From Terriglobia bacterium (lineage in GTDB: Bacteria; Acidobacteriota; Terriglobia; Bryobacterales; Bryobacteraceae), in NCBI GenBank assembly GCA_963696335.1, contig CAVOJS010000005.1, forward strand, positions 39,910 through 103,909: a DNA stretch of 64,000 bases, read 5' to 3'. The position numbers were made by a program, and so were the translations under genes. Under the pieces are notes generated by a model, which saw only the letters and a program-made list of their open reading frames with translations, had not been told where the DNA came from and made no database searches. Positions within the stretch are counted from its first letter, which is position 1, and each line of letters begins with the position of its first letter. This document shows positions 3,716 through 49,759 of this stretch, one piece after another.

Positions 3716-3735
3716 CCGCGCCCGAAGGTGAATCG

Positions 3736-6104: not shown

Positions 6105-6127
6105 ATTGTTTTCTGGAGCCAAAAAAA

Positions 6128-18079: not shown

Positions 18080-18089
18080 GTTATTCACG

Positions 18090-25164: not shown

Positions 25165-25321
25165 CTGAACCTCTCCTCGCATTAGAGCCAACACGCCACA
25201 GCGCCATGGGGACGAGCGGGTGGCTGAGCCCAGAACCAATTTTCGCACTTCCGGTAACGTGCAGTGCAGAGCGAACGACGAAAGCCCCGCGAAGCCGTGC
25301 AATGACCGCGTTGACGCAAGG

Positions 25322-27544: not shown

Positions 27545-27562
27545 AACGAAACTCTTTCAGTG

Positions 27563-28486: not shown

Positions 28487-28529
28487 CGCTCCTCCGTCGT
28501 AAAAACGTCGCGCTCTCCGATCAACGGCG

Positions 28530-29318
28530 TTAGCGATACGCTGGCGGCCCCTGGGGAAGGTCGATCAGGAAACGCGCACGCGCTCCATCGGCCGGATCGC
28601 ACAGCCATTCCCGCACCGTCGTTGACGCGGGCAGTTTTTCGTACAGAAATGCATATGTGTGCGGTTTGACGAACACCTTGCTGTCGATCCACGTGAACGT
28701 CACGTGCAGTTTGCGGCCTTCTACCGCCAGCGTGTACTGTTCGATCAGGTGGGAGTTCTCGCTCCGGAATCCGCCGCCCGGGATCGCGTTCATTCCCGCA
28801 TCGTTGAATCCGATCGTATCGACCGTGAGCGTGCCCCCATTCCAACTCCCGATTGAGTTGCCGAGCGTGGTCGGATCGAACGTGTCCAATGAAGGATGCG
28901 TCCGGCCGTCCGTGTAGATGTGACGGACCGGGGAATTCGACTGAGAGGTGATCGCGACTTCGTTCTTGCCCTGGCGGATATCGATCGGCGACCCATCGTC
29001 CATCATGAACGGCACGCCCACATGATTGCACCACCGGATCACGTGGAACTCTTTGGCCTTTTGCACCGCCGGGTCGGCGGCAGCCGCAGCCGCGGTGAGC
29101 GATGCCTTCGGAACGTTTCGGCTGTAATAGCGCAGTTCCCAGAAACCCGAAATATCGGACGCGAGATTCGACTGCGCCCGCGCGTTGGGAGCAAGCCCAA
29201 CCCCCGCAAGGAAGGCCGTAAGGAAGACGACGGGCATTCTTCCGCGTAACCCTGCCCCTGAATTATGGTGTCGCCGGAAAGTCATATGCAAGCCTGGTCG
29301 ATTCGCGTCTGAACTCAT
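28530..29318 (-). CDS. Secreted protein of the SGxW family, subtype C1
   Basis: Motifs are DISGFWEL, YTDGRTHPS, GNSIGSWNGGTLTVDTIGFND and IPGGGFR, with a Cys pair (RWCNHVG ... WLCDP). ATG 29318 overlaps the upstream stop as ATGA. Internal Met starts at 29285 and 29237 are also possible. Confidence 0.8.
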   Translation of the reverse strand: MSSDANRPGLHMTFRRHHNSGAGLRGRMPVVFLTAFLAGVGLAPNARAQSNLASDISGFWELRYYSRNVPKASLTAAAAAADPAVQKAKEFHVIRWCNHVGVPFMMDDGSPIDIRQGKNEVAITSQSNSPVRHIYTDGRTHPSLDTFDPTTLGNSIGSWNGGTLTVDTIGFNDAGMNAIPGGGFRSENSHLIEQYTLAVEGRKLHVTFTWIDSKVFVKPHTYAFLYEKLPASTTVREWLCDPADGARARFLIDLPQGPPAYR

Positions 29319-30091
29319 TGTTGGGGCGGCGCGGGCGATTGTTGACCCACGTTCGCCGGACGATTATTTTGCTCATACACGCTGGTCGCGCCAATCACCG
29401 GTATGCCCTGGACCGATTGGTACTCCTTGGGGTCGCCCGAATCGCACGGGTCCTCGAACGCGTACACATCCTTCGGCATCTTGTAATAGTTCAACTGATA
29501 CGCGTGAGGCTTGGCGTAGATGGTCGGATCGGCCCACAGGAAATCGACCGTCATGTGCCCGCCGTCGCCCACCCGGTAGCGTTCGATGAGATGGGTTTGG
29601 GGCCCACGGCGTCCGCCGCCGGGCACGCCCGCGAAGCCCAGGAAACCCACGGTGTCGATGACCAGCGTGTCGCCTTCCCAATGCCCGGTCGAGTGCCCGT
29701 TGGAAGTGAGCTCAACATCGGCCGGATGCCCGCGACCGTCCATATACACATGACGCGAACCGCCCTCGCGCTCGGAGACGATCAGTAGTTCGTCGTCTCT
29801 TTGCACGAAGTCGAACGGTGGCGAGGACGTCATAAAGAAAGGGAATGCCAGGACGCGGCACGCGGTTCCATCTACGGGATCCTTCGCTCCGTAAGCAGGG
29901 TGTTCGCCCCGAGGGCGTTGCATGGGCGCAAGCCCCGGAACCAGCTGCGCACGGTCTACCTTACCGAACACGTCGATGAACGCCCCTGAGCCGCTGGTGA
30001 ACTTGGGCTCCCAGAATCCCGAGAAATCGGGATGAGCCGTCTGCGCCAGGGCTACTCCCGCGAGCGGAACCATCAACGCAAGGAGCCGCAT
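29315..30091 (-). CDS. Secreted protein of the SGxW family, subtype C2
   Basis: The likely start is ATG 30091 (MRLLALMVPLAGVALAQ). Motifs are DFSGFWEP, YMDGRGHPAD and GHSTGHWEGDTLVIDTVGF, with a Cys pair (TACRVL ... DPCDSGD). The 382-aa ORF extension to 30463 is rejected. Confidence 0.8.
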   Translation of the reverse strand: MRLLALMVPLAGVALAQTAHPDFSGFWEPKFTSGSGAFIDVFGKVDRAQLVPGLAPMQRPRGEHPAYGAKDPVDGTACRVLAFPFFMTSSPPFDFVQRDDELLIVSEREGGSRHVYMDGRGHPADVELTSNGHSTGHWEGDTLVIDTVGFLGFAGVPGGGRRGPQTHLIERYRVGDGGHMTVDFLWADPTIYAKPHAYQLNYYKMPKDVYAFEDPCDSGDPKEYQSVQGIPVIGATSVYEQNNRPANVGQQSPAPPQQ

Positions 30092-30294: not shown

Positions 30295-31248
30295 CTACGC
30301 CTCCAGACATTTCCTCGCGTAGCTCAGACAGTTGGAGATTTCCGTTACCGAGTTCGACCCGGGCGGAATGGGATACTCCAACTCGATATTCGCCGGGAAC
30401 GTGTACCTTTCTTTTTTCAGCATGAGGAGCACTTCCTTGATCGGAGTATCTCCCTGACCCCACGGCATGTTCGGACCGTTATTCCGCTTGCGGTCTTTGA
30501 GGTGCAGATTGGTAATCCGGGCATGGTTCTTCTGGATGAACGCGACCGCATCAAGATTCGCCGCCGTCATATGCCCGATGTCTAGATTGGCGCCGATGTA
30601 TTTATTCAGTGACAGGATCGTCTCAAAAGATTGCAGCGATGCGAACTCGTTCGGGTCGTCCACCGCCGCATGATTGTGGCCGCCCCACACGATCTTGTAT
30701 TTCTCTGCGACCGGAGCCACGCGCCGCGCGACCGCCACCTTGCTGGTCGACGAAATCGCATGAACCTGGAGCGCCCGCGCCATGCGAAAGGCATGCTCGA
30801 TTTCCTCGTCTTCAATATCGGCCGCCATGTTGTAGCACAGGATGTCGATGCGAACGCCCGCGGCCTCGAAGGTCTTACGGACTTTTTCGAAGGTCGCTGG
30901 AGTGGTGGTTCTGCGCCATTCTTGGCGCCGCCGCCGGCCTTCTTCAATCGCTGCTTGTTGCTCCGGCGTCAACTTCACGCCGGGTCCGAAATTGGGGATT
31001 ACGGGCGCGCCCGCCGCAAGCTCGCCATCGTTCGACATCAGTTCCACCGAATTCAGACCGATTTTGACCAGGTCCGGGAGGATATCGTCCGGCTTCTTGA
31101 CGTCCGTCTTAAAACTATAGGTAATGGTGCCTATCTGTACGCCGTCGAACTTGGAATTAGGCGCGGCCATCGCCCGCACCGGGATGAACGCGCCGGCCTG
31201 CAGAGCAGCGGCCGCGAGCTTCCCGAAGTCCCTTCGAGTTGAATTCAT
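30295..31248 (-). CDS. Tat-signal xylose-isomerase-like TIM-barrel protein
   Basis: The Tat motif is MNSTRRDFGK. The conserved block is LHLKDRKRNNGPNMPWGQGDTPIKEVLLMLKKERYTFPANIELEY. Confidence 0.9.
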   Translation of the reverse strand: MNSTRRDFGKLAAAALQAGAFIPVRAMAAPNSKFDGVQIGTITYSFKTDVKKPDDILPDLVKIGLNSVELMSNDGELAAGAPVIPNFGPGVKLTPEQQAAIEEGRRRRQEWRRTTTPATFEKVRKTFEAAGVRIDILCYNMAADIEDEEIEHAFRMARALQVHAISSTSKVAVARRVAPVAEKYKIVWGGHNHAAVDDPNEFASLQSFETILSLNKYIGANLDIGHMTAANLDAVAFIQKNHARITNLHLKDRKRNNGPNMPWGQGDTPIKEVLLMLKKERYTFPANIELEYPIPPGSNSVTEISNCLSYARKCLEA

Positions 31249-31260
31249 GAAGTCTCTCCT

Positions 31261-32406
31261 TTAACTGACGGTTACCCATCCCTGCCGCTCGAAGCTCGAA
31301 AATTCGGCCTCGAGTATGGTCAACTGCCGCAAGCCGTCCGCGAATTGCGGATAATCCGGCGCCAGGGCCGGGTTCTCTATACTGCGATAGAAGCGGCGGA
31401 ACACCTGCTTGAACGTGTCGTCGTAGCCTTCGCTGTGTCCCCCGGGAAGCTCCGCATACGCGCGCGCCTCGGGATCGAGCAGCGACGGATCTTTCAGCAG
31501 AATTTGATTGGGCGCGCCGCGATGGCCAATCCACAGTTCGTCCTGCCTCTCGCCGTCCCACGCAAGGCCCGCTTTGGTCCCGAAGATTTCCAGGCGGAAG
31601 CTGTTCTTGCGGCCGGCGCTCACCTGGCTCGCGGTGAAGCATCCGCGCGCCCGTTTGCCCAGATGGAACATCACCGCCGCGTAATCTTCCGTATCGATCG
31701 CGACGTCCTCGTAATCCTCGGGCTCGAGCGCAGCGCCCGAAAACGTGTCGACCGCCCGCTTCGGACGCTTGCGGGATTTGTGGAATGTTTCAATGTCCGC
31801 GCACACCGAACGAATGCGCTGCCCGGTTATATGTTCGATCGTGTCGCACCAATGCGAGCCGATATCCGCCAGACAACGCGACCGGCCTCCTTCGGCCGAA
31901 ACCAGACGCCAGTTCCAGTCCGTTTCGTACAAGAGCCAATCCTGCGAATACGTCCCTTGCACGATCAGGACTTCTCCCAGTTCTCCGGATTGGCAGATAC
32001 GCCGCGCCTGCTGAACCATGGGATAGGATCGCAGATTGTGGAAGGTGCAGTTTCGCAGCCCGGTCTTATTCGCAAGCTCGACCAGCTGGCGAGCTTCGTT
32101 TACGGACGTTGCGAGCGGTTTCTCGCACAACACATGCTTGCCCGCTTCGAGCGCCGCCTTCGCGATGGGAAAGTGGAGCGCGTTCGGGGTACACACATGG
32201 ACGGCGTCGACTTCTGGATCCCGCAGCAAATCCTCGTAATTTGCGCTGAACCGGTCCACGCATAGTTCCGCTGCGAGCTTCGCGCCGTCATCCGCCGGCC
32301 CCACGCCGATTGCATACACTTCCACGTTGCCCAGTCTGCGGATGGCTTCGACGTGAATGCGCCCCACGAACCCGGTTCCGAACACAACCGTCTTCAGCTT
32401 CTTCAT
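31261..32406 (-). CDS. Gfo/Idh/MocA-family NAD(P)-dependent oxidoreductase (cytoplasmic)
   Basis: The N-terminal Rossmann motif is VVFGTGFVGRIHVEAI and the EKP motif is VLCEKPLA. There is no signal peptide. Confidence 0.9.
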   Translation of the reverse strand: MKKLKTVVFGTGFVGRIHVEAIRRLGNVEVYAIGVGPADDGAKLAAELCVDRFSANYEDLLRDPEVDAVHVCTPNALHFPIAKAALEAGKHVLCEKPLATSVNEARQLVELANKTGLRNCTFHNLRSYPMVQQARRICQSGELGEVLIVQGTYSQDWLLYETDWNWRLVSAEGGRSRCLADIGSHWCDTIEHITGQRIRSVCADIETFHKSRKRPKRAVDTFSGAALEPEDYEDVAIDTEDYAAVMFHLGKRARGCFTASQVSAGRKNSFRLEIFGTKAGLAWDGERQDELWIGHRGAPNQILLKDPSLLDPEARAYAELPGGHSEGYDDTFKQVFRRFYRSIENPALAPDYPQFADGLRQLTILEAEFSSFERQGWVTVS

Positions 32407-32410
32407 GCCG

Positions 32411-33370
32411 TTACGCCCACCACGCCGCGCCGGCCTTTTCCCGGATGATCAATTCGTTGAGGAACGCGGCCGCCTTCGTCAGTCCTTCCTCCGCAGACAT
32501 CAGGCTGTCTTCATGTTCGATCGAGAGCGCATGGTCGTACCCGTACACGCGCAGCGTGGAGACAAACTCCTTCCACCAGGCCGCATCGTGTCCGTAGCCG
32601 CATGTGCGGAAAATCCAGGACCGGTTGCGCTCATCCGTGTAATGCTTGGTATCCAGCACGCCGGCGCGCGGTAGATTGGCCGCGTACATCTGCGTATCCT
32701 TCGCGTGCACGTGAAAAATCGCGTCGCCCAGCACGCGAATCGCCGCGATCGGATCGATCCCTTGCCAGAACAGGTGACTCGGATCGTAGTTGCAGCCGAT
32801 CGAGGGACCGGAAACGTCCCGCAACCGAAGCATCGTCTCGGGACTATAGACGACGAACCCGGGATGCATTTCGATTGCGACCTTCACGCCGTGATCCGCC
32901 GCAAATTTCGCGCGCTCCTTCCAGAAGGGTACAACCGCCTCCTCCCACTGCCACTTCAGCACGTCCAGGTACTCGGGAGGCCAGGGGCAAGTGACCCAGT
33001 TCGGAAACTTCGCCCCGGGAGAATCTCCGGGACAGCCGCTGAAATCAACCACCACCGGCACTCCGAGCTTTTCGGCGAGCAAGATGGTCTTCCGGCTGAC
33101 TTCGGCATCGCGTGCGGCGCGCTCGCGATCGGGATGCAAGGGATTTCCGTGCGAACTCAGTGCGCTGATCGAGAACCCATGGTCGTCGAGTTTCTTCTTA
33201 AAATCGGCGAGCTGCGGCGGACTCTCGAGCATGGAAAGCTTGCAATGAGAATCTCCGGGATAGCTCCCTGTTCCCAACTCCACCGTCCGGATATTCAGCT
33301 TCGCAAGCTTTTGCAGCACCTCTTCCAGCCTGAGGCTGGAAAGCAGAGGAGTAAAAACACCAACGTTCAC
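32411..33370 (-). CDS. Xylose-isomerase-like TIM-barrel protein without a signal peptide (cytoplasmic sugar phosphate isomerase/epimerase family)
   Basis: Family-like sequences are VAIEMHPGFVVYSP, NYDPSHLFWQGIDP, HVHAKD and SIEHED. GTG 33370 lies 26 nt after the upstream stop. The ORF extension to 33457 would overlap the upstream gene. Confidence 0.85.
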   Translation of the reverse strand: MNVGVFTPLLSSLRLEEVLQKLAKLNIRTVELGTGSYPGDSHCKLSMLESPPQLADFKKKLDDHGFSISALSSHGNPLHPDRERAARDAEVSRKTILLAEKLGVPVVVDFSGCPGDSPGAKFPNWVTCPWPPEYLDVLKWQWEEAVVPFWKERAKFAADHGVKVAIEMHPGFVVYSPETMLRLRDVSGPSIGCNYDPSHLFWQGIDPIAAIRVLGDAIFHVHAKDTQMYAANLPRAGVLDTKHYTDERNRSWIFRTCGYGHDAAWWKEFVSTLRVYGYDHALSIEHEDSLMSAEEGLTKAAAFLNELIIREKAGAAWWA

Positions 33371-33396
33371 GCTTTTCGCTCCTGTATCCCGAGGGC

Positions 33397-34101
33397 TTAA
33401 TTGCCCTCGATCGCCCCCACGAGGAATTTCGTTCTGTCCTGATCGCCCGCGTCGCACGGCAGCACGCGAGGCTCTTCAATCCGTGCAATCCGGTAGTAGC
33501 GGAATTCGTACGAGTGCGGCTTTCGATACACCCTGGAATCCTCCCAGGTGAACGTCGCGGAAAGACGCGCGCCGTCACCCAATAGGCGATACCGTTCGAC
33601 CAGGCGTGAATTCGAGGTGCGCGTGCCGCCGCCCGGGATTCTGGTAGCGCCGCGGTCGTTGAACCCCACCGTGTCGACGACGAACGTATCTGCCTCCCAA
33701 TGGCCGATCGAATGGCCGTTGGTCGTGGGATCCAGATCATCCTTGTCGGGGTGCTTGCGCCCATCGGTGAAAATGTAGCGCGCCGAGGAAGGCGCTTTTG
33801 AGACCATGGCCGTCACCGTCGGGCTTTGCCGGATGTCGAGCGGCGAGCGGTCGCCCAGAATATAGGGAACGCCGAGCGGAATGCAATACCGGATCGACTC
33901 CACGTCGTGTTTCCTTTGCGCCAGCTCTGCCGCCATATCCCCCGGCCTGAGCAAAGCGGCGGCCGGAACGCTCATGCTATCGAAACGCAGTTCCCAATAA
34001 CCCGTAATGTCCGGATGCGATGCGGTCTGGCCGATGGCGATCGGCACGAGACCGGCCATGGGCAAGAGGAGCAGCGTCCAGACCGGTGTCGTCGCCTTCA
34101 C
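33397..34101 (-). CDS. Secreted protein of the SGxW family, subtype C1
   Basis: Motifs are DITGYWEL, FTDGRKHPDK, GHSIGHWEADTFVVDTVGFND and IPGGGTR, with a Cys pair (RYCIPLG ... LPCDAGD). The GTG start overlaps the upstream stop as GTGA. Confidence 0.8.
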   Translation of the reverse strand: MKATTPVWTLLLLPMAGLVPIAIGQTASHPDITGYWELRFDSMSVPAAALLRPGDMAAELAQRKHDVESIRYCIPLGVPYILGDRSPLDIRQSPTVTAMVSKAPSSARYIFTDGRKHPDKDDLDPTTNGHSIGHWEADTFVVDTVGFNDRGATRIPGGGTRTSNSRLVERYRLLGDGARLSATFTWEDSRVYRKPHSYEFRYYRIARIEEPRVLPCDAGDQDRTKFLVGAIEGN

Positions 34102-34859
34102 TTCTGCTCCGGCGTTGAGACCGATCCCAACTGGCGTTGCGAGTATCCGGCATCGCGAGGATCGTCATTATTCTCAAACGGCGTCCCTTCCGCGACCCTC
34201 TTAAATTTGTACGTGAACGTATGTGGCTTCAAAAAAACCGTATCGTCCTCGTAGCGGAACGTGATCGTCATTACGTCGTGGCTGACCAACTGAAACTGCT
34301 CGGTGAGACGCGTCGTATCTTTGGCCCGTCCTCCGCCTGGCGTAGGCATCACGGGATGCCGGCTGTCGCACACGCGTGCCGGAAACGCGACGGTCTCCAC
34401 CACCAGCGCGCTGCCTTCCCAGTGCCCGATCGAATGCCCGAATCCGCTCGGCCGGTATCCGGGCGCCTTGGTCTCGGAATGATCGCGTCCATCCGTGTAA
34501 ATGAACCGCGCGCGATTGGACTCCGCTCCGAGGAGAATCTCATCGTTGGTCTGCACGATGTTCAGCGCGGGTGAAGATGCCATCATCAACGGCAGGTTTC
34601 CGACCGGGCAAGCCGCCGTCCGCCGCGCGACGTTCACGACGTTCCCCGCGTTGGCCGAGTCCTGCAGCTTCTTATTGTCCTCGATAATTTCCGGCCGCAA
34701 CTGCGGCGCTGGAACATTCGCGAACCATTCCTCGAAGCTGCCCGACCCGGGATCCTGCACCAGCCACATTCCGGATAAATCGGCACGAGCCGCGTTTTGC
34801 GCGAGTCCGCAAGCCGCGGATAGCAGCACGACCGCCGCGATGGATGGAAATGGTTTCAT
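34098..34859 (-). CDS. Secreted protein of the SGxW family, subtype C2
   Basis: The signal peptide is MKPFPSIAAVVLLSAACGLAQ. Motifs are DLSGMW, YTDGRDHSE and GHSIGHWEGSALVVETVAF. It is the only family member that lacks the C-terminal Cys. Confidence 0.8.
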   Translation of the reverse strand: MKPFPSIAAVVLLSAACGLAQNAARADLSGMWLVQDPGSGSFEEWFANVPAPQLRPEIIEDNKKLQDSANAGNVVNVARRTAACPVGNLPLMMASSPALNIVQTNDEILLGAESNRARFIYTDGRDHSETKAPGYRPSGFGHSIGHWEGSALVVETVAFPARVCDSRHPVMPTPGGGRAKDTTRLTEQFQLVSHDVMTITFRYEDDTVFLKPHTFTYKFKRVAEGTPFENNDDPRDAGYSQRQLGSVSTPEQK

Positions 34860-34868
34860 AAACTCGTC

Positions 34869-36587
34869 TCAATTTAGGACAAACGAATAAATGGTATCGC
34901 CCGCGGCAACCAGCAGATACTGATGGCCGTCGAGCAGATACGTCTCCGGTGCGTTGGTGACCTGATTCGTGAGATAGGCGTGCCACAGGATCTTGCCGTC
35001 CGCTGCGTCGTAGCCGATGATGTTCCCGGATACGTCCCCCGCGAACAGCAGCCCGCCCGCCGTCGTCAACATACCGGAACCCAGCGCGCCGCCGAGCGCG
35101 GGATAAACGTGCTTCCAGACCGTCTTGCCGGTCCGGTAGTCGATCGCCGAAATATAGCTGCGCATGGTGCCCAAGGCGACTTCTTCTTTGCCGCCGAGCC
35201 CCATCGCGCCGCGCGGATCGAGCTCCGTCTGATAGTACATGGCATAGCTGTCCTGCGTCGGCACATACATCAGGCCGGTCGCGGGATTGAACGCCGGTGG
35301 CGGCCAGTTTGTGGCGCCCTGGTTCGCCGAAGAGACCAATGCCCCGGCGGGATCGAAGTCCTTCGCCGGATCGCGAACCGGCTGGCCCTTCGCGTTGAGC
35401 CCCTTCGCCCAGTTCACCGCCTCTCCGAATTTACTGGTCACCAGATGCTCGCCGGTCAAGCGATCGAGCGTAAAGAAGTAGCCGTTGCGGCTCGCCTGCA
35501 AAACCATCTTTCGCATGCGCCCGTTGAATTCCGCATCGATCAGCACCGGGGTTTGCGCCGAATCCCAGTCGTGCGTGTCGTGCGGCGACGTTTGGTAATA
35601 CCACGCCAGCTTGCCCGTCTCCACGTTCACTGCGACCACGGAGCACGTATACAAATTGTCTCCCTCTCCGCGCGTCCCCGTTGTATATGCGGGAGACGGG
35701 TTGCCCGTGCCGAAGAAATACAAATGTGTCTCGGGATCGTACGATCCTGGCACCCACGCGTTGCCCCCTCCATGTTTCGCGGCATCCAGGTTGGCCCACG
35801 TTTCAAGGCCCGGATCTCCCTTCTTCATCGGAACTGTGTAGAACTTCCATTGCAGCGCGCCCGTTTCCGGATCGAGCGATTGAATGAAACCGGGTTCGTC
35901 CAGGTCGTTGCCCGTGCCCACCAGGATGTGATTGCCGATCACAATCGGCGCGGTGGTGGAAAAATACTGCAGATCGAAATCCGCGATTTCTTTGTGCCAC
36001 AGCTCCTTGCCGGTCCTGGCGTCCAGGCACACCAGATAATCGTCGGGCGTTTCCATGTACAGCAGGTTGTGCCACATCCCGATTCCGCGATTGCCGATAT
36101 GCGTTCCCCCGCGTGTCTTCCACACGTAATGCCACAACTCATGTCCGTCGCGCGCGTCGAGTGCCCACGCATTGTCCGGCGTTGCCACGTAGAGGATTCC
36201 GTTTACTTCAAGGATGGATCCCTTCACGCTCGCGAGGGCCGTCGCTTCCATGTTGCCGATGCCGCCCGTGATCAGCACCGTTCCCGGGCGCTTCATTTGC
36301 GTACCGGCGATCAGCCGCGCAGACCACGCCAAACTCAGGTTCTTCACGGTTGTCTTGTCAACTTGCTTGAGCGCGCTGAACCGTTCGCCCGAATAGTCGC
36401 CGCCATAAGTCGGCCAATCGTCGGCCGTGCCGAGCGGCTTCAAAATCACTGTGGGATCGAGCCCTTGCGCCAAGAGGGCGGAGGGCGCGGGAAACAGCAG
36501 CCCGAGCGAAACAATCGGGCTCAGAGGAAGCAGTCCCAGAGGAATCAGGAAACGACAGGCGCGCAATATCATGCAAAATGATTTCAT
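34869..36587 (-). CDS. PQQ-dependent dehydrogenase, methanol/ethanol (quinoprotein alcohol dehydrogenase) family, periplasmic
   Basis: Family-like sequences are DDWPTYGGDYSGERFSALKQV...NLSLAW, GGNAWVPGSYDPETHLYFFGTGNPSP and GDNLYTCSVVAVNVETGKLAWYYQTSPHDTHDWD. ATG 36587 overlaps the upstream cytochrome stop as ATGA. The extension to 36974 is rejected. Confidence 0.9.
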   Translation of the reverse strand: MKSFCMILRACRFLIPLGLLPLSPIVSLGLLFPAPSALLAQGLDPTVILKPLGTADDWPTYGGDYSGERFSALKQVDKTTVKNLSLAWSARLIAGTQMKRPGTVLITGGIGNMEATALASVKGSILEVNGILYVATPDNAWALDARDGHELWHYVWKTRGGTHIGNRGIGMWHNLLYMETPDDYLVCLDARTGKELWHKEIADFDLQYFSTTAPIVIGNHILVGTGNDLDEPGFIQSLDPETGALQWKFYTVPMKKGDPGLETWANLDAAKHGGGNAWVPGSYDPETHLYFFGTGNPSPAYTTGTRGEGDNLYTCSVVAVNVETGKLAWYYQTSPHDTHDWDSAQTPVLIDAEFNGRMRKMVLQASRNGYFFTLDRLTGEHLVTSKFGEAVNWAKGLNAKGQPVRDPAKDFDPAGALVSSANQGATNWPPPAFNPATGLMYVPTQDSYAMYYQTELDPRGAMGLGGKEEVALGTMRSYISAIDYRTGKTVWKHVYPALGGALGSGMLTTAGGLLFAGDVSGNIIGYDAADGKILWHAYLTNQVTNAPETYLLDGHQYLLVAAGDTIYSFVLN

Positions 36588-37480
36588 TTGAGTGTCGCCA
36601 GGTAAGCGGTCAGGTTGTGGATATCGTTGTCGGTGTAAACCGGCAGCAGCTCTTTGTGCGGCTTCATGGGATCGTGCAGCTCGATTTTCGGAAGTTCTCC
36701 CTCGCGCCGGAAGCTGCGCGCCGAGCCGTCGGTCAGTGTCATGGTCACGATGAAATCGTCGATGCGCCCTAGCCGGCCTTCCACCTGTTCTCCGTTTGGA
36801 AGCGTCACGGTGACGGTGACGGGCGGTACGTGCGTCGGGCTGTCGGGAGGCGGATTGAAGCCTCGAAATCCATACACCGCCGGCATTAGCCACGTTTGCT
36901 GCAACGTGCGAGGATCGGAAATCCTCGAAGCGATGCCCTTCAAATCGCCGGTTGCCGAGTGGCACCCCGCGCACTTCTGTTCGAAGTATTGCCGGCCGGC
37001 GTTGGCATCGCCCACAAGTAGCGTCTTCGGGCGCATCCGTCCGGGATCGCGGCTCGAAACACGGAAATCATGGATGTATGCCGATAGATCGCTGATGAAC
37101 GCCGAAAGATCGGCGGCTTGCGCATCGGAGAAGTTGAATTTCAGAACGCCCTCGCGCGTCGCGACATGCCCGTTCTCCCCGGCATTCGTGAGGAAGGTGC
37201 GCAGTTGCTCACCGTCCTTGTCCTTCAGCAGGATCTCGGAGCGCAGCAAATTCGGTGCGCCATTGTCTCCGCCGCGTGCGTCCTCTCCGTGGCAATACGC
37301 GCAATTCGTCTGAAACGCTTTTTTCCCTCTGTCGAGCGTCGCCGCATCCGCCTTGGGCCGCGTCGGGAAACTCGCCATGAACGGCGCTTCTTGCGCCGCC
37401 AGTGGACCGAGCGCCGTTGCGGCCGCCATCGCCAACGCGGCAAGCCGAGGCGCTACCTTCAGGCTCATGTGCTTCGTCAT
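36584..37480 (-). CDS. Dihaem c-type cytochrome with an extra C-terminal domain, secreted
   Basis: The CxxCH motifs are CAYCHG and CAGCHS. The signal peptide is MTKHMSLKVAPRLAALAMAAATALGPLAAQ. Confidence 0.85.
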   Translation of the reverse strand: MTKHMSLKVAPRLAALAMAAATALGPLAAQEAPFMASFPTRPKADAATLDRGKKAFQTNCAYCHGEDARGGDNGAPNLLRSEILLKDKDGEQLRTFLTNAGENGHVATREGVLKFNFSDAQAADLSAFISDLSAYIHDFRVSSRDPGRMRPKTLLVGDANAGRQYFEQKCAGCHSATGDLKGIASRISDPRTLQQTWLMPAVYGFRGFNPPPDSPTHVPPVTVTVTLPNGEQVEGRLGRIDDFIVTMTLTDGSARSFRREGELPKIELHDPMKPHKELLPVYTDNDIHNLTAYLATLK

Positions 37481-37529
37481 CCTCTCACCTCATGCGAACG
37501 CTGTTTCGTTGCGTTCGAAGATCGCACCC

Positions 37530-38231
37530 TCAATGTCTGGTGTTCCCTGTCCCCAGGGTTTGCAGATACGCCATCAGATTCGCCACATCGGCATCACCAT
37601 AGCGCTCCAGTAATTTTAAATGCGCCGCGAGCCCCGCATCCGCATTCTCCAGCACCGCGCCGTCCGGACCCGGCCGGAGGAATCGCTTGCGTAGCGACGC
37701 TTCATCATACTTCCTCACGGCCGCCGCCAGATCGGCGCCGGCGTGGCACTTGCCGCATCCGCCCGCCCCGCGGAAATAGGTCTCGCCCGCCTGCGCGTCG
37801 CCCAACGCACGCTCCGATGCTGCGGAAAGCTCGCGGTAGCGTCCCTGCTCGCGCAAATAGTGAATGTACGCCGCGAGATCGGAAATCTGTTGCGGGGTAT
37901 AGTCCGGATACTGTGGCATGGCGGTCTGTAGATTCGGCAATCCCGCGCGCACGATCCCCCCGATCAGATTTCCTCCCTCATCCCGCCCGACCAGGGGAAG
38001 ATGCAGCAGGTCCGCCGCGCCCATCGCGGCGCCCGTCAGATCGATTCCGTGGCAAAAATGGCAGGAACTGATCACGTACACCGTCCGGCCCCGCTCCAAT
38101 TGCGCGGTCGGCGCCGGGTACCCGCCCGCGTCGCGTTTACCCTCGGGAGCCTGCGCCCAACCCACGCCGAGCGGCACGAGCCACGCGAGGAGGATCAAAC
38201 GCGCGAGGTCAATCACAATCGTTCGGCGCAT
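37530..38231 (-). CDS. Dihaem c-type cytochrome, secreted
   Basis: The CxxCH motifs are CHFCHG and CGKCHA. The gene starts 1 nt after the upstream TIM-barrel stop. Confidence 0.85.
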   Translation of the reverse strand: MRRTIVIDLARLILLAWLVPLGVGWAQAPEGKRDAGGYPAPTAQLERGRTVYVISSCHFCHGIDLTGAAMGAADLLHLPLVGRDEGGNLIGGIVRAGLPNLQTAMPQYPDYTPQQISDLAAYIHYLREQGRYRELSAASERALGDAQAGETYFRGAGGCGKCHAGADLAAAVRKYDEASLRKRFLRPGPDGAVLENADAGLAAHLKLLERYGDADVANLMAYLQTLGTGNTRH

Positions 38232-38232
38232 A

Positions 38233-39201
38233 TCAGGCCAGCGCTTCCCTGCAATAATCCATGCAGCGTTTCACTTCTTCGGTCGAGGAACGGAAGGATC
38301 CGTACTCGTACTCGATGTAGCAGCGGATCGGATAGCGCTTGTCGCGAATCAGCCTCAGGATCTCTCGAATCGGCGTGTCGCCCTGCCCGAAAGGCATGTT
38401 GCGCCCGTTGTTTCGCTTTCGATCCCGCACGTGGATATTCACGATCCGCGCGTGATGCTTTTCAAGAAACGCGAGCGGATCGTTGTTCCCCGCGACGAAG
38501 TGCCCGGTATCGAGCGTCACTTTGAAATATTCCGACATCGCAAGCGCCGTTTCAAAGCTTGCGGGCGTCGCGAACTGATCCGGATCGGCCAGATTATTGT
38601 GATTGTGCATCGCCACATACATTTTGTGACGCTCGACGAACGGCACCAGGCGCTTTGCTTCGCTCAGCACTGTCGACGAACTGAATCCTGCAACGCCCAG
38701 AGCCTTGGCCGCTTCGAAGGTCCGGTCGCGTTCTTCATCGGTGAACGTCTCGTTGAAGTTCACGTTGTACAGATACATACGCAGCCCGGCGTCGTCGAAT
38801 TGCTTGCGCACCGTGCGGTAATAATCCATCGGAATCGAAAGCCGCCACCGGCGCGCCTCCTCGCGCATTTTTGCATAACCCGCCGCGCGCCGCGTGGCCA
38901 CCCACCAGCCCGTCGCGTAGCTGCCCATCGGCTCCACGTGCCCGGACATGATCTCGCACTCGGCGATCCCGGCCTGCTTCATGTCCTCGATCAGCGTCGG
39001 GATCAAGCTTCGATCGCCCGCCGGCGGCAGATCGTGAAAGCTGAACGTTTCGACGCCAAACGTGACGCCGGAAATGATTGTGGGTTGAAACGCCGCGGCC
39101 GCCCCCGCCCTCTCCGGGGAGGATATCAAGCCGGCCGCCGCGGGGAGTCCCGCCAGGGCCAGCTTGCCGATCTGTCTTCGCGTATACATTCGCGATTTCA
39201 C
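38233..39201 (-). CDS. Tat-signal xylose-isomerase-like TIM-barrel protein
   Basis: The Tat motif is YTRRQIGK. The conserved block is IHVRDRKRNNGRNMPFGQGDTPIREILRLIRDKRYPIRCYIEYEY. The start is GTG 39201 or ATG 39189. Confidence 0.9.
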   Translation of the reverse strand: MKSRMYTRRQIGKLALAGLPAAAGLISSPERAGAAAAFQPTIISGVTFGVETFSFHDLPPAGDRSLIPTLIEDMKQAGIAECEIMSGHVEPMGSYATGWWVATRRAAGYAKMREEARRWRLSIPMDYYRTVRKQFDDAGLRMYLYNVNFNETFTDEERDRTFEAAKALGVAGFSSSTVLSEAKRLVPFVERHKMYVAMHNHNNLADPDQFATPASFETALAMSEYFKVTLDTGHFVAGNNDPLAFLEKHHARIVNIHVRDRKRNNGRNMPFGQGDTPIREILRLIRDKRYPIRCYIEYEYGSFRSSTEEVKRCMDYCREALA

Positions 39202-39208
39202 AGTCTCC

Positions 39209-40240
39209 TTAGGCGCAGCGCAGCGCCAGGCCGTTACGCTCGGCGAAGCTCAGCGCTTCCACCGCGGCCCCGCGCGCCCCGGCCGTATCCCCGTTCGGCA
39301 TGATATAGATCGGAATGTCGGTCTGCTCTTCCCGCTGAATCGGCATCCCCGCTCGAATCTCATCCACGAACCAGCGCTGAAACTCGCGCGTTGTCTCGAG
39401 CGCCCCTCCGCCCACGATCAGGGCGTCGGGATCGAAGGTGTTGATCATCTCGTCGAAAAATAATCCCAGCGCATGCGCCTGCACGCGGAAGATGGCACGG
39501 CACATCGCGTCGCCGCTTTCCGCCAGCCCTCGCACCAGCCGCGCCGCGTACGCTCGATCGTCGATATTGTGCAGATCGTGGCCCGGATATTTCGATAGAA
39601 AATGCGGGAGCAGCGACTTGTGGATCGCCGTCAGCGAGCACAGCGATTCCAGGTCGCCTCTGCGCCAGCAGTTACACTGCAATTCCAATCCCTCGACGTC
39701 CGCAATCGAACGCGTCGGAATTAATACGTGCCCCAGTTCCCCGCCGAATCCGCGCCGCCCCTTGACCACGTTCCCGTCGATAATGATGCCGCCGCCGAGG
39801 CCAGTCCCGATCACGGTGGTGATCGAAGTCGCGGGCTTCTTCGTTCCGAAAATCGAATAATGACCCCACAGGGCCGCCGCGTTTCCGTCGTTCAGATACG
39901 TCACCGGCTTCGCGAGCCGCTCCGCCAGCCGTCCTCGAATGTCGAATCCAATCCAGCGCGGATGTCCGAAGTTGGTCGAACCGCGCGCGCTCAATACACC
40001 ATCGGCGCTGGCCGGACCGGGCGTATCCAGGCCAACCACGGCGATCTCCTCCATCTGCACGCCGGCGCGCCCCGCGGCCATCTGGAGCCCGGCGGCGATC
40101 TGCTCGAGACAAATCTCCGGTCCTTCCGTCGACCGCGATGGGTACTCGCACAATCCCTCGATCAGGAATTTTTCCTGACCGTCAACCAGGGTATAGTTCA
40201 CGGCCGTTCCACCGAGATCTACACCAGCAACAATTGCCAT
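39209..40240 (-). CDS. ROK-family sugar kinase
   Basis: Family-like sequences are AGVDLGGTAVNY, YLNDGNAAALWG, GTGLGGGIIIDG and GGELGH. A Cys-rich segment reads LQCNCWRRGDLESLCS. Confidence 0.85.
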   Translation of the reverse strand: MAIVAGVDLGGTAVNYTLVDGQEKFLIEGLCEYPSRSTEGPEICLEQIAAGLQMAAGRAGVQMEEIAVVGLDTPGPASADGVLSARGSTNFGHPRWIGFDIRGRLAERLAKPVTYLNDGNAAALWGHYSIFGTKKPATSITTVIGTGLGGGIIIDGNVVKGRRGFGGELGHVLIPTRSIADVEGLELQCNCWRRGDLESLCSLTAIHKSLLPHFLSKYPGHDLHNIDDRAYAARLVRGLAESGDAMCRAIFRVQAHALGLFFDEMINTFDPDALIVGGGALETTREFQRWFVDEIRAGMPIQREEQTDIPIYIMPNGDTAGARGAAVEALSFAERNGLALRCA

Positions 40241-40411: not shown

Positions 40412-40891
40412 TCATCCCAGAAATGCAATGGCGCGTCCGGCCCAGCCCACGCCGAACCACAGAAACAGCGAAATCAGCGGCAGGACCACCAGCCGCCTGC
40501 TTGCATGCGCGGCCGCCTCGGCTCTCACCACCCGCCGATACACCGTGTACTGAAAAAGTATCGCGACCAGGAGAACGATCATCTTAACGTTAAATGATGT
40601 GTTGGCCGCATAGCGCGCGGGATCCGGCAAAAAGACAAAAAAGCCCGAAACGGCCGCCAGAATGAGCCCCGCCGTTCCCCAACTCCAGACCTGCTTCGCG
40701 AGCACCTCCAGCTTGATCTCCTGAAGACCGATCCCGAGCAGGCGGAAATTCAGAATCACCATCGAACCGAGCAGAAGCGTAATGCCGAATAAGTGAAACG
40801 CCTGGATCACGGGAATCGCCAGATGCGAATTACGCAGAATATCGATCGTCGGGGAGCTGTACGACATCTGCCAGAGGCGTTGAAGTCTCAT
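40412..40891 (-). CDS. Integral membrane protein (4 predicted TM helices), paralog of 40904..41389
   Basis: IPVIQAFHLFGITLLLGSMVILNFRLLG aligns with FPVVEGSHILALSLSVGLILMLDLRLLG in the neighbouring gene. Hydrophobic segments run throughout the protein. Confidence 0.7.
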   Translation of the reverse strand: MRLQRLWQMSYSSPTIDILRNSHLAIPVIQAFHLFGITLLLGSMVILNFRLLGIGLQEIKLEVLAKQVWSWGTAGLILAAVSGFFVFLPDPARYAANTSFNVKMIVLLVAILFQYTVYRRVVRAEAAAHASRRLVVLPLISLFLWFGVGWAGRAIAFLG

Positions 40892-40903
40892 CGCATTTCC
40901 CCG

Positions 40904-41389
40904 TTACAGTTCATACGCGGTGAGCCGTCCGCACAGGATCACGGCCATCCACAGCACCAGCGACGTCGCCGCCACCACCTTCACTCCCGCCGGAACCGAC
41001 GGCGCCGCATCCCACTCCGCCATGTGCGGATAATATTTGTATTGATAAAAAGCCGCGTTCAATCCCAAAAGGGCCAGCGTTAAAATCTTCACCCGAAAAT
41101 AATTATTGGTGTAAACCGACTCGGCTTGCGCAAAAAACAACAGCAGTCCGCTTCCGAACACCACGGCGAAGCCGGGCAGCGCCCACGGCATCACCTGCAG
41201 CATGATGCGCGAAATCGGCTCGCTCCGGAATGCCAGGCCCAACAGCCGGAGGTCCAGCATCAGAATGAGGCCAACCGATAGCGACAAAGCCAGAATGTGG
41301 CTTCCTTCGACAACCGGAAAAATGAAATCGGCCTGGCGAAACCACGTCGCCCACGCCGTGTTTTGAATCCAGTGAAAGAGTGCGAGCAT
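40904..41389 (-). CDS. Integral membrane protein, paralog of 40412..40891
   Basis: The likely start is ATG 41389 (MLALFHWIQNTAW...). The ORF could extend to 41467. Confidence 0.65.
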   Translation of the reverse strand: MLALFHWIQNTAWATWFRQADFIFPVVEGSHILALSLSVGLILMLDLRLLGLAFRSEPISRIMLQVMPWALPGFAVVFGSGLLLFFAQAESVYTNNYFRVKILTLALLGLNAAFYQYKYYPHMAEWDAAPSVPAGVKVVAATSLVLWMAVILCGRLTAYEL

Positions 41390-41530
41390 CCGCTTGTTTC
41401 CCGCGAACCTGGCGTCCCGCGAAATACCGTCCGGATGCGCGCCGCAAAATCCATCTCTTGCACGCAACGAACCCAGCCGGGTCCATGGATCGAGGACCCT
41501 CGCCCGGGCTGGACGATTTCGCGCGACCGG

Positions 41531-41938
41531 CTACTCGCCGCCTTCTCCCTTCGGACGGGCGATGTCGTGATACAGACGCTTGCCGTCCGGCAGGATCGCA
41601 TAAAAGAGGGAGGCGCCCTTGGTGACCCCGTCTTTCATCGGATGGGCCACCAGCTTGACATGATCGCCGGCCTTGAATGTCGCGCGTGTCCAGCCTTGGC
41701 GGCCCATGATATTCGTCGCTCCGCCTTCGATGTCCCAGGTGCCTACTGTCGAAGGATCGGCCGCGCCCGGATCCACCTTCACGATGATGTGCGTGTGGGG
41801 ATTCTCCCAGCGGTACTCGATGACCGTGCCTTCATAGGTGGTGTCCCTCGTCAGATCGAACATCGCGAAGGAATGGTGGGCGAGAACGGGAATCGCGCCC
41901 GTAAGCAGGCCGGCCATAACAATCCATTTTGCCTTCAT
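41531..41938 (-). CDS. Small secreted protein, DUF6152-like (family assignment from memory)
   Basis: The signal peptide ends in ...PVLAHHSFAMFD. It carries WENPHTHIIV and a beta-rich remainder. Confidence 0.65.
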   Translation of the reverse strand: MKAKWIVMAGLLTGAIPVLAHHSFAMFDLTRDTTYEGTVIEYRWENPHTHIIVKVDPGAADPSTVGTWDIEGGATNIMGRQGWTRATFKAGDHVKLVAHPMKDGVTKGASLFYAILPDGKRLYHDIARPKGEGGE

Positions 41939-41979: not shown

Positions 41980-42708
41980 TTAGTTTTTAGGCGCGCCTCC
42001 TGGCGCTCCCAGCAAATAATTCGCCCGCGATTCGTCGCTGGCGTTGCAATCGTATTCCCGCAGCTCCGTGCCCCGCGGGGCGCGATAGTAGCGAAACTCG
42101 TAGGTATGGGGGCGCTGAAATACCTTGGCGTCTTCCCATGTGAAAACCACCGATAGGCGCTTGCCTTGATCGAGCAGCTGGAACCGCTCCACCAGATGGG
42201 AATCCGCCGTGCGGCGTCCACCGCCGGGAATCCGCGTGATGCCTTCATCGGAAAAACCGATCGTGTCGACCACCAGCGTTTCGCCGTCCCAATGCCCGAT
42301 GGAATTACCGCCGGATACCGGATCGAACGTTTCCGCGCTCACGTGCCCCCGCCCGTCCATGTAAATATGGCGCGAAGGATTGCGCAGACCGGTCACGATC
42401 AGCATTTCCTTTCCGTTGGTGTCCTGCACGATATCGAGCGGCGAAGCGTTCATCACATACGGAACACCGAAAAAATGACACCACCGGACCGCATTCCGGT
42501 CATGCTGAAACTGGACGTGTGGATCTTCCGCGGCCATCGCCGGCGTCAGCGCGGCCGGCGGCACGTTCGCACTATCCACCCGGAGCTCCCAATAGCCCGA
42601 AAGATCGGGCCTGCTCGTCTGCGCATATCCCGCGCTCGCCGTTCCCACAAGCATCACCGCGGCCAGCATTGTCCCGTCGAGTCTCGCGCGGCGCTTCCCC
42701 GGCGTCAT
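41980..42708 (-). CDS. Secreted protein of the SGxW family, subtype C1
   Basis: Motifs are DLSGYWEL, YMDGRGH, GNSIGHWDGETLVVDTIGFSD and IPGGGRR, with a Cys pair (RWCHFFG ... YDCNASD). It has an ATGA overlap with the upstream gene. Confidence 0.8.
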   Translation of the reverse strand: MTPGKRRARLDGTMLAAVMLVGTASAGYAQTSRPDLSGYWELRVDSANVPPAALTPAMAAEDPHVQFQHDRNAVRWCHFFGVPYVMNASPLDIVQDTNGKEMLIVTGLRNPSRHIYMDGRGHVSAETFDPVSGGNSIGHWDGETLVVDTIGFSDEGITRIPGGGRRTADSHLVERFQLLDQGKRLSVVFTWEDAKVFQRPHTYEFRYYRAPRGTELREYDCNASDESRANYLLGAPGGAPKN

Positions 42709-43478
42709 CGTTGCACCGGCTGGACGACCGAGCCGCCTTGGGCTTCATCGTCGGCATGGCAGTATTCTTCAAATGCGTAGGTCCCTGGCGCGGACCGATG
42801 ATAGGTCATCTCGTAGGTGTGGGGCTTGAGGTAAATCGCCGGATCGTCCCAAGTGGATGTTACCGAGAGCACGTTTCCTCCCTCGATCAGCCTGAAGCGC
42901 TCGACCAGGTGCGTTCCGGGGCCCACGCGTCCTCCCCCCGGAGTCGCTCCTCCGCCTGTAAACCCGATCGTGTCAACCACCAGCGTGTCGCCTTCCCAAT
43001 GGCCGATCGCGTGGCCGTTCACCGATCTCAGCAAATGTTCGGCGTCCGGATGCGGTCTGCCGTCAAGATAGATGTGCCGCGCGAAGGTGTGCACCTCAGG
43101 CGCCTGGACGATCTCGTCTTTGGACTGGGCGATGTCCCACGCCGCCGAATGCTGCATGAAGAACGGATACGAATTCGTCAGACACCACTTCGATCCGAAC
43201 GAAACCACGTCACCGCGCGCCTGGGCGGCCGCCTGCCGTTTGGCTTCTTCGATATATTCCGGCTTGATCGAGGCGCGTGGAATCCGCTCCAGCGTCCCGC
43301 CGAAGCTCCCCCCGCCGAACTCGTCTTTGCGTTCCCAGAATCCCGACAAATCCGGCGCCGTCCCGGTTTGCGCCATCGCATGAGCGGCGCCGAGCGCCAT
43401 CCCGCCCGCGAGCATAGCCGCCAGGATCGCCCGGCGGCGCGCACTATTATCGTTCCTGTTCACAACTGCTCTCCCCAC
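42705..43478 (-). CDS. Secreted protein of the SGxW family, subtype C2
   Basis: Motifs are DLSGFWER, YLDGRPHPDA and GHAIGHWEGDTLVVDTIGF, with a Cys pair (KWCLTNS ... EYCHADD). The N-terminus SARRRAILAAMLAGGMALGAAHAMAQ may be a Tat-type signal. The GTG start lies 2 nt after the upstream stop. Confidence 0.8.
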   Translation of the reverse strand: MGRAVVNRNDNSARRRAILAAMLAGGMALGAAHAMAQTGTAPDLSGFWERKDEFGGGSFGGTLERIPRASIKPEYIEEAKRQAAAQARGDVVSFGSKWCLTNSYPFFMQHSAAWDIAQSKDEIVQAPEVHTFARHIYLDGRPHPDAEHLLRSVNGHAIGHWEGDTLVVDTIGFTGGGATPGGGRVGPGTHLVERFRLIEGGNVLSVTSTWDDPAIYLKPHTYEMTYHRSAPGTYAFEEYCHADDEAQGGSVVQPVQR

Positions 43479-44755: not shown

Positions 44756-44869
44756 GGTCCAATTTCCTCCCGAACCATTGGGCAGCCCGAAGGCCGCCTC
44801 TTGTTACGGTAACTCCGCGATCCCCCGTTCGTACCCGGCGAGGAATCCGATCTCCTGCAGACGCTCGAC

Positions 44870-45904: not shown

Positions 45905-46032
45905 GGCCGCCCCCGCTGGTTCCGCGAACCGGCCGGGTCCGGGCGGGAGGTGACAGGAAGCTCCGCGAATCGATCTGGCGTTTCCGATTTCATCGTCTTC
46001 CTGCCTCCCCGTCGTGTCCAGTCGCTGCGGCC

Positions 46033-49476: not shown

Positions 49477-49759
49477 GTGTATTGCCCCCAATCGGTTTAC
49501 GAACAGTGATTCGACACGGCATCCCGGACATGGGCTGCTGCGTGGTAGCACCATGACTTTGTTCCGCGGGAGGCCGGACGGCGCTCCCAAAAACGCGACT
49601 TCCCAAAGCTATACCCGTTTGGCGGGTTTACAAGCTCGGAACGGTTTCATTACAGAGAACGAAGGGGATCTTTCCTGTTTTGATGAAGTTGGCCACTCTC
49701 GCGCGGACGTATCACCGCGTAATAATACGGTTATCTGAAGATTCCTTGGAACGAACTGT

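Follow-up and report, generated by a model that had tools for sequence, protein, structure and literature searches.

A conserved quinoprotein gene cluster of Acidobacteriota with a proposed role in two-compartment oxidation of sugar-like substrates

The 64,000-nucleotide stretch of contig CAVOJS010000005.1 from a Terriglobia bacterium, a soil member of the Bryobacteraceae (Acidobacteriota), (hereafter the window) carries on its minus strand a run of ten genes that encode, in order, a ROK kinase, an exported TIM barrel (tTIM_c), two dihaem c-type cytochromes (cytA and cytB), a quinoprotein, two secreted proteins of an unannotated family (C2 and C1), a cytoplasmic TIM barrel (cTIM), a Gfo/Idh/MocA oxidoreductase (Gfo) and a second exported TIM barrel (tTIM_b). 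Our best reading is that these genes specify a quinoprotein-driven variant of a periplasmic keto-sugar pathway, resembling 3-keto-glycoside breakdown, to which an uncharacterised protein family is attached. We give an about even chance to the broader statement that this cluster of Acidobacteriota serves the oxidative catabolism of a sugar-like substrate (a glycoside, an oligosaccharide, or an anhydro- or keto-sugar) divided between periplasm and cytoplasm. An initial annotation made from the sequence had proposed a two-compartment pathway of this type, and conserved gene context now supports it well. What the analysis shows directly are the families of the genes and their order, their export signals and active-site motifs, their conserved synteny, and the folds of C1 and of a TIM barrel; the class of substrate, the position oxidised, the cofactor and metal, and the role of C2-C1 are inferences.

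The order and families of the ten genes, from 40240 to 30295, are those of the initial annotation (open reading frame (ORF) listing and Pfam; Table 1), and the junctions that it singled out are present: the cytB stop overlaps the quinoprotein start as ATGA at 36584-36587, C2 overlaps C1 as GTGA at 34098-34101, and one nucleotide separates the tTIM_c stop from the cytA start. Gfo and then tTIM_b continue the run as described there. In translation, both cytochromes carry a signal peptide and two CxxCH motifs. Gaps between all ten genes, from ROK to tTIM_b, are at most 49 nt; tTIM_b lies 12 nt past Gfo and is the last gene packed in this way, the next C2 gene beginning about 203 nt farther on, and 171 nt lie open on the upstream side of ROK. 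The exported TIM barrels bear the twin-arginine translocation (Tat) motif T-R-R-x-F/I-G-K, the RR of which is nearly invariant among 35 homologs. We infer that the ten genes are co-transcribed.

Some gene starts deserve comment. The family of cTIM was correctly assigned, but its start at 33457 is probably wrong: the 348-aa ORF would overlap C1 by 61 nt. An alternative GTG at 33370 lies 26 nt beyond the C1 stop and agrees with the gene call on L001, the contig whose C1 gene translates exactly to the C1 of the window; most likely, cTIM starts there, is about 319 aa long and lacks a signal peptide. The quinoprotein may start within the ATGA overlap, which is not certain: a second ATG lies five codons inside the ORF, and relatives in NCBI have 557 aa. 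The NCBI copy of tTIM_c begins four codons later than the ORF of the window. Recent horizontal transfer was considered and set aside because the GC content is uniform over the 64-kb window (0.58-0.62).

How widely is this arrangement kept? We examined 74 genome loci anchored on C1 and, independently, 80 metagenome loci anchored on the quinoprotein. Among the former, the full order of the window was found again in three metagenome-assembled genomes of Acidobacteriota (L002, L003 and L014; C1 62-68% identical), rearranged versions occur in Bryobacterales, Vicinamibacterales and other Acidobacteriota, and ROK is syntenic with the cluster in 11 loci. The core was found in dozens of metagenome contigs, and the cluster is kept across Acidobacteriota orders at 50-65% identity. 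Of the quinoprotein-anchored loci, 60 could be evaluated on the upstream side, and in 58 of these the quinoprotein gene comes immediately after one for a dihaem cytochrome; over all 80, an upstream cytochrome was seen in 74, every one of cytB type, at about 50% identity and full length (74/74). Directly downstream, 23 of 57 loci have a gene for a Tat TIM barrel, and 6 of 57 have C2, followed by C1 and a Tat TIM barrel. These two counts together are a lower bound: the ORFs recorded downstream in the other loci are mostly spurious, and two of them resemble Tat TIM barrels of another subtype and one resembles DUF6152. Within 10 kb of the quinoprotein, the 80 loci show a Tat TIM barrel in 40 cases, Gfo in 19 and cTIM in 14.

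The smallest version of the cluster (L109) consists of a divergent gene for a LacI-family regulator and genes for a cytochrome c, the quinoprotein, a Tat TIM barrel, Gfo, a TIM barrel and an NHS/LacY-like transporter of the major facilitator superfamily (MFS). Four further loci (L156-L159) additionally have a TonB-dependent receptor (TBDR), an MFS transporter, DUF6152 and a pair of DUF6644 genes. The core is thus made of cytB, quinoprotein, Tat TIM barrel, Gfo and TIM barrel, with a transporter and a regulator, and ROK and C2-C1 are frequent additions to it. In line with the initial annotation, the genes form a unit across periplasm and cytoplasm, and this unit is conserved: cytB nearly always precedes the quinoprotein, and Tat TIM barrel, Gfo, cTIM and MFS often follow. 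The recurrence of this core gives strong support to one pathway spanning the two compartments.

The quinoprotein belongs to the NCBIfam family TIGR04528, "acido-empty-quinoprotein group A" (754.7 bits, cut-off 650), a name that members of its 90%-identity cluster bear in NCBI. Aligned to 1kv9 and 6zcw, it retains the metal-binding Asn, the catalytic Asp, the stacking Trp, the Arg of RNG and the NW motif. Two residues past the catalytic Asp stands an extra Asp (HDWD, equivalent to WDFD of 6zcw), the position being Thr in 1kv9, 1kb0 and 1yiq. An extra Asp at this place is an accepted marker of lanthanide dependence (PMC10875860). The Asp-x-Asp pair is invariant in the relatives of the quinoprotein, and its motifs are kept in the 21-23 relatives that adjoin C genes as well as in a 16-sequence alignment. 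From these motifs the protein may use PQQ (pyrroloquinoline quinone), which is uncertain. Its conserved neighbourhood marks cytB as its dedicated partner. It has a parallel in the lanthanide-dependent PQQ alcohol dehydrogenases (XoxF-XoxG, PedH), which have in common with it the eight-bladed propeller, the catalytic Asp with an Asp two residues on, the conserved Asn, Arg and Trp, and an adjacent dedicated c-type cytochrome. Unlike them, the quinoprotein of the window is accompanied by a dihaem cytochrome with an extra domain and by sugar-type neighbours instead of XoxJ or C1 (one-carbon) genes, and it differs in family score and in the active-site residues described below.

The fold of an exported TIM barrel suggests keto-sugar chemistry. 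The AlphaFold2 model of tTIM_c (pLDDT 91) matched in Foldseek 3lmz, Art22, UlaE, ketose 3-epimerases, DgpBC, BT1, AL1 and AtHYD, and its nearest solved structures include uncharacterised "sugar isomerases" of Parabacteroides. The 3-keto-beta-glucopyranoside-1,2-lyases 8tct and 8tcr were found at E 1e-9 to 1.5e-8 (ranks 23 and 47, 14-15% identity). The families of these structural neighbours share a common chemistry, the abstraction of a proton beside a sugar carbonyl. Among Protein Data Bank (PDB) entries, cTIM matched 2zds and 8ro4 (AtHYD, a 2-hydroxy-3-keto-glucal hydratase; E 5.6e-9, residues 128-311). Gfo lacks a signal peptide and has as PDB relatives 6a3f, 5ya8 and DgpA, the nearest including scyllo-inositol/L-glucose dehydrogenase; its nearest NCBIfam family is that of the levoglucosan dehydrogenase LgdA (NF052479; 171.6 bits, cut-off 650), and it scored 43-48 bits against the BT_2158/2159 families (cut-offs 650-750). 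ROK is cytoplasmic and lacks a helix-turn-helix domain; its best NCBIfam match, the glucokinase subfamily, reached 101 bits against a cut-off of 260, and it falls under every equivalog cut-off. Thus, the likeness of the TIM barrels and Gfo to keto-sugar enzymes that had been claimed for the cluster stands at the level of family and fold and fails at the level of equivalogs.

These assignments recall a pathway in which a glycoside is oxidised at C3, the aglycone is eliminated by a secreted TIM barrel, and the product is hydrated and reduced (10.1101/2024.03.25.586180). With this 3-keto-glycoside (non-Koshland) pathway, represented by BT1-4/AL1-4 of Bacteroides/Alistipes and by G3DH/AtHYD of Agrobacterium, the cluster would have in common a periplasmic oxidation of a sugar hydroxyl, a secreted TIM barrel of "sugar phosphate isomerase" type that eliminates or hydrates, a cytosolic Gfo/Idh/MocA enzyme and a possible cytochrome link (10.1101/2024.03.25.586180); the TIM barrels of the window are alike in fold and sequence to BT1, AL1 and AtHYD. 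The oxidant would differ, being a cytochrome-c-linked quinoprotein here and a Tat-exported Gfo or the FAD enzyme G3DH there, and the cluster adds a calycin-like pair, DUF6152 and DUF6644. The levoglucosan system LgdA/LgdB/LgdC offers a second parallel in its cytoplasmic pair of Gfo and TIM barrel, with the Gfo of the window aligning to levoglucosan dehydrogenase over its full length, short of the family cut-off; unlike that system, the cluster has a periplasmic branch, and a parallel cytoplasmic Lgd-like branch could exist within it. In the C-glycoside deglycosidases DgpBC/CarBC, a TIM barrel is joined by a small beta-rich subunit. The proposed keto-sugar TIM barrel and a separately encoded accessory subunit would be common to both systems, and the fold search on tTIM_c also returned DgpB-C; C1/C2 showed no relation in sequence to that small subunit.

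What would the pathway look like? Substrate would enter via a TBDR, and the group-A quinoprotein, with scavenged PQQ and a lanthanide or calcium ion as predicted cofactors, would turn a secondary alcohol group on the sugar into a ketone in the periplasm, its electrons passing to cytB, on to cytA and into the respiratory chain. A Tat-exported, metal-dependent TIM barrel would act on the keto-sugar by enolisation chemistry, by beta-elimination of the aglycone or by hydration/epimerisation, as BT1/AL1 and AtHYD do. The C2-C1 pair would be an optional two-barrel calycin module that binds substrate, aglycone or intermediate and hands this ligand to partner enzymes or to DUF6152/DUF6644 membrane components. 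An MFS transporter would import the product, which cTIM, the Gfo/Idh/MocA reductase and ROK would convert to a sugar phosphate. In favour of a sugar-like substrate, six loci of Steroidobacteraceae (L027, L033, L034, L037, L038 and L040) carry a GH3 glycosidase gene, after which come a C gene, a TIM gene, DUF6152 and two DUF6644 genes.

Several observations weigh against this reading, the first of which concern the quinoprotein. Its vicinal Cys-Cys is missing, the CC of 1kv9 and 6zcw being aligned to G-T or to a gap, and it is likewise missing in 21 of 23 cluster-linked relatives. The metal-binding Glu is replaced by Asp (GNDLD in place of GGE, with a GND(L)D motif in relatives), and the protein lacks one of the Trp residues close to the PQQ site. 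Against TIGR03075, the methanol/ethanol family, the protein scored 382.7 bits, under the cut-off of 480.05. The "PQQ dehydrogenase" of the initial annotation keeps its quinoprotein propeller, and its place in the methanol/ethanol family is doubtful, given the missed cut-off, the absent Cys-Cys and the altered metal ligand. Its best characterised relative is 1kv9, a quinohaemoprotein alcohol dehydrogenase, and none is close. Moreover, "empty" in the family name implies doubt about PQQ, and no pqq genes were seen among the scanned proteins of the 64-kb window.

Does the group-A protein work without PQQ, as a non-catalytic propeller or with another cofactor, leaving the redox step to something else? 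The curated name "acido-empty-quinoprotein" and the altered residues just described would fit such a protein. Nevertheless, the family keeps the catalytic Asp, the Asn, the Arg, NW and the stacking Trp without variation, and the obligate dihaem cytochrome partner argues for a redox function. Furthermore, those Acidobacteria that encode PqqU have no genes for making PQQ, and scavenging is the inferred source of their PQQ (PMC12124388); an "empty" quinoprotein is therefore not a contradiction. We consider a protein without PQQ highly improbable.

The neighbourhoods also hold points against a single pathway. In 24 of 57 loci, nothing immediately downstream of the quinoprotein could be recognised as a member of the cluster families, and a promoter/terminator scan returned counts at or below shuffle expectation, uninformative on operon structure. 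The quinoprotein and cytB could be a general alcohol-oxidising respiratory module that lies among sugar genes because the region is a TBDR island rich in paralogs, and not because all of them serve one pathway. Besides those 24 loci, this explanation can draw on the closest solved relatives of the quinoprotein, which are alcohol dehydrogenases, and on the window itself, a dense island of TBDRs and repeated modules. However, the order cytochrome, quinoprotein, Tat TIM barrel, Gfo, TIM barrel, MFS recurs together with a LacI regulator, and its preservation across the Acidobacteriota orders, at the identities given above, speaks against a chance grouping, making the general alcohol module quite improbable.

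The remaining points against the keto-sugar reading lie with the sugar enzymes. The likeness of the TIM barrels is at superfamily level only, with BT1 ranked 23rd; no enzyme of the cluster reached the NCBIfam equivalog cut-off of any characterised sugar enzyme; and the DUF1080 (PF06439) hydratase/lyase, a component of the 3-keto-glycoside pathway, was not found among the scanned proteins of the window. Could the substrate be a cyclitol or polyol, oxidised by the quinoprotein to an inosose-like ketone that the TIM barrels dehydrate or isomerise in the manner of IolE/IolI? The TIM barrels match IolE weakly in NCBIfam (27-40 bits), Gfo matches IolG (102.6 bits), and Gfo resembles the scyllo-inositol dehydrogenase 5ya8. 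These scores are far under the cut-offs (IolE, 37-40 bits against 290; IolG, against 355), no other iol genes were seen among the scanned proteins of the window, and the ROK sugar kinase and the GH3 neighbour in Steroidobacteraceae suit sugars better. A cyclitol pathway is, in our judgement, distinctly unlikely.

Table 1. Positions of the cluster genes and of their neighbours in the window.
Feature	Positions	Strand	Basis and remarks
ROK kinase	39209-40240	-	Pfam ROK, E 4.9e-36
Tat TIM barrel (tTIM_c)	38233-39201	-	Pfam PF01261; likely start 39189
Cytochrome c (cytA)	37530-38231	-	Pfam Cytochrom_C and CBB3; secreted; dihaem
Cytochrome c (cytB)	36584-37480	-	Pfam; dihaem with C-terminal extra domain
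Quinoprotein, eight-bladed, secreted	34869-36587	-	Pfam; NCBIfam TIGR04528
C2	34098-34859	-	Secreted C1 paralog; no Pfam or NCBIfam match
C1	33397-34101	-	Secreted; calycin (FABP-like) beta-barrel
Cytoplasmic TIM barrel (cTIM)	32411-33370 (ORF to 33457)	-	Pfam PF01261, E 2.3e-33
Gfo/Idh/MocA NAD(P) oxidoreductase, cytoplasmic	31261-32406	-	Pfam
Second Tat TIM barrel (tTIM_b)	30295-31248	-	Pfam PF01261; Tat motif TRRDFGK
Two adjacent DUF6644 four-transmembrane proteins	40412-41467	-	Pfam DUF6644; upstream of ROK
DUF6152 small secreted protein	41531-41938	-	Pfam, E 8.2e-27; missed in the initial annotation
C2c-C1c pair, 4-nt overlap	41980-43478	-	Upstream of DUF6152
Periplasmic double thioredoxin-fold redoxin, Tat TIM barrel and TBDR	43481-49590	-	Pfam; head of the gene run
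Tat TIM barrel	44870-45904	-	Pfam
TonB-dependent receptor (TBDR)	46033-49590	-	Pfam
Downstream unit: C2a-C1a, Tat TIM barrel (27563-28486), dihaem cytochrome c (26840-27544)	26840-30091	-	

What are C1 and C2? The two are 27-28% identical and have invariant residues in common, and their 4-nt overlap was found in the C2a-C1a and C2c-C1c junctions too. Neither has a Pfam or NCBIfam match as a single sequence; 65 members of the family gave no Pfam match at E up to 5, and no sequence relative of C1/C2 was found in the PDB by phmmer or by profile. AlphaFold2 models C1 (pLDDT 86.9) as an antiparallel barrel in which a helical insert follows strand 1 and a helix forms the C-terminus; for this model, Foldseek returned CRABP, FABP, avidin and lipocalin at probability 1.0, with target-normalised TM-scores of 0.53-0.60 to CRABP/FABP. 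By this model, C1 belongs to the calycin superfamily at the level of fold only. Almost all members of the C family keep a D-[IL]-[ST]-G-x-W motif, and the SGxW motif noticed in the initial annotation would correspond to the G-x-W strand of calycins. C proteins have in common with the calycins (FABP/CRABP, lipocalins, avidins) the antiparallel barrel, the helical insert after strand 1 and the N-terminal G-x-W. They differ in having no sequence-level relation to them, a length of about 200 residues, an arrangement in overlapping pairs or tandem fusions, and many invariant polar residues (R108, D113, R115, E169 and D188). The family is large, with 12,358 clusters at E 1e-3 and 6,192 at E 1e-10. 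Natural tandem fusions of two C domains exist, in support of C2 and C1 working together as a single two-barrel unit, and a nearly invariant Cys pair would fit a disulfide formed in the periplasm.

We considered and set aside lipoproteins (a conserved lipobox is absent from the translations), haem proteins (CxxCH is absent) and, for C2-C1, a role as dedicated PQQ chaperone (the paralogs are too numerous, and a quinoprotein is lacking from half of the loci). The SGxW pair had been given a part in the pathway. It is indeed present in the cluster, but as an optional insert, and its closest partners are DUF6152 and DUF6644; C2-C1 is accessory, because the minimal operon (L109) lacks it. With low confidence, we favour a module for ligand binding or hand-over, and the trafficking of metals or cofactors is its main rival.

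The border that the initial annotation drew around the cluster proved artificial. DUF6152 and the DUF6644 pair, which it did not list, lie just upstream (40412-41938). DUF6152 is the most constant neighbour of C genes, and DUF6644 pairs are likewise constant. The mature N-terminus of DUF6152 is predicted to be HHSFAMFD, and HHSF, NPH and TW.E motifs are kept in 58 homologs; its His-His N-terminus could be a metal site. DUF6644 stands beside C genes in 32 genome loci, the genes being paired in many of the loci fetched, and has a conserved His in its first transmembrane segment (TM1) and a C-terminal GR motif; the pair looks like a heterodimeric small membrane protein. The order TBDR, redoxin, C2, C1 was found again in four loci (L016, L030, L054 and L078). 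Among the six Steroidobacteraceae loci, a TBDR before GH3 was detected in five, a cytochrome c'-like gene follows DUF6152 in the same five, and in L033 the C gene shares 4 nt with the TIM gene.

Thus far we have placed C2-C1 on the side of carbon handling. Alternatively, C2-C1, DUF6152 and DUF6644 could, together with the redoxin and the TBDR, acquire and insert a cofactor or metal (PQQ, a lanthanide or another metal) for the quinoprotein and other periplasmic metalloenzymes. The cassette of TBDR, redoxin, C2-C1, DUF6152 and two DUF6644 genes looks like an uptake locus; the conserved mature His-His and NPH of DUF6152 and the TM1 His of DUF6644 are compatible with metal handling; C genes adjoin metalloenzymes (TIM barrels or metallo-beta-lactamase (MBL)-fold proteins), and one C domain is fused to an MBL domain. 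Calycin-fold metal binders also exist (ZinT/YodA). Against acquisition, a chaperone would hardly call for as many C paralogs as the window has (at least nine); a quinoprotein is missing within 10 kb of about half of the C loci, and from those of Steroidobacteraceae altogether; and the His of the GHSIGHW motif is not invariant. Tat-exported TIM barrels, moreover, normally fold and take up their metal before export. We regard acquisition as unlikely, and keep ligand hand-over within a sugar-type pathway as the preferred role.

A bolder proposal joins two parts. Group-A quinoproteins would be lanthanide/PQQ glycoside (secondary-alcohol) dehydrogenases that start a non-hydrolytic cleavage in the periplasm and pass electrons straight to the respiratory chain, and C2-C1, DUF6152 and the DUF6644 pair would form an undescribed paired-calycin module, reaching from periplasm to inner membrane, that carries substrate or intermediate or relays to the small heterodimeric membrane component. 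That both parts hold together is a speculative proposition, and we would sooner bet against it.

Within the collection of literature searched, no relevant publication was found on this module, on TIGR04528 quinoproteins, on DUF6644 or on Tat TIM barrels with cytochromes in Acidobacteria. The pathway proposed here gives a concrete and testable role to TIGR04528, a family common in soil Acidobacteria, which are among the most abundant and least understood soil phyla. If true, it would extend glycan breakdown by oxidation, elimination, hydration and reduction to a respiratory form, driven by a quinoprotein and possibly dependent on lanthanides, and would link rare-earth biology to the turnover of carbohydrates in soil. 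The analysis also exposes an unannotated family of secreted paired barrels (at least 6,192 clusters at E 1e-10) with DUF6152 and DUF6644 as conserved partners. A simple version in cultured Steroidobacter species, such as the genes for TBDR, GH3, C, TIM, DUF6152 and DUF6644 in Steroidobacter agaridevorans, could be amenable to genetics.

Other genes were seen near clusters related to that of the window. A GMC (glucose-methanol-choline) oxidoreductase lies near the cluster of L109 (at 5936-7666 of that locus, minus strand), MBL/glyoxalase-domain proteins lie near the clusters of L156-L158 (3172-6145 in L156), and dienelactone-hydrolase and MBL proteins near L160. They may be further members of the same catabolic network.

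C genes recur elsewhere in the window. After a fourth C2-C1 pair (54276-55151 and 53523-54266, minus strand) come genes for a Tat TIM barrel (52552-53490) and for an MFS transporter (51008-52429), so that the C2-C1-TIM unit is present here in another copy. Distant C members, with D[LF][ST]GxW and DGRPxP...GxWxG motifs, stand beside MBL-fold proteins at 5160-7975 and 16248-19046 (both plus strand), and in the ORF at 6089-7975 a C-like domain (BLASTP E 1e-12 against Cx) and an MBL domain form one protein. At 24451-26712 (minus strand), a single C protein of Cx type follows HbpS-like (haem-degrading/GlcG-like) and DUF899 thioredoxin-like proteins; unlike most Cx singletons of other genomes (L055-L075), it has no DUF6152 downstream.

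The window as a whole resembles an island of utilisation loci. It holds five TBDRs of the CarboxypepD_reg and OMP_b-brl_4 type in 64 kb (536-22527 and 46033-49590), one of which is shorter and matches the first half of the barrel model only, and a two-component system at 2897-5046. At 57290-58633 (minus strand), a 447-aa secreted protein has an N-terminal CxxCH (CQECH) and no Pfam match; it adjoins an FMN-dependent dehydrogenase at 55905-57158.

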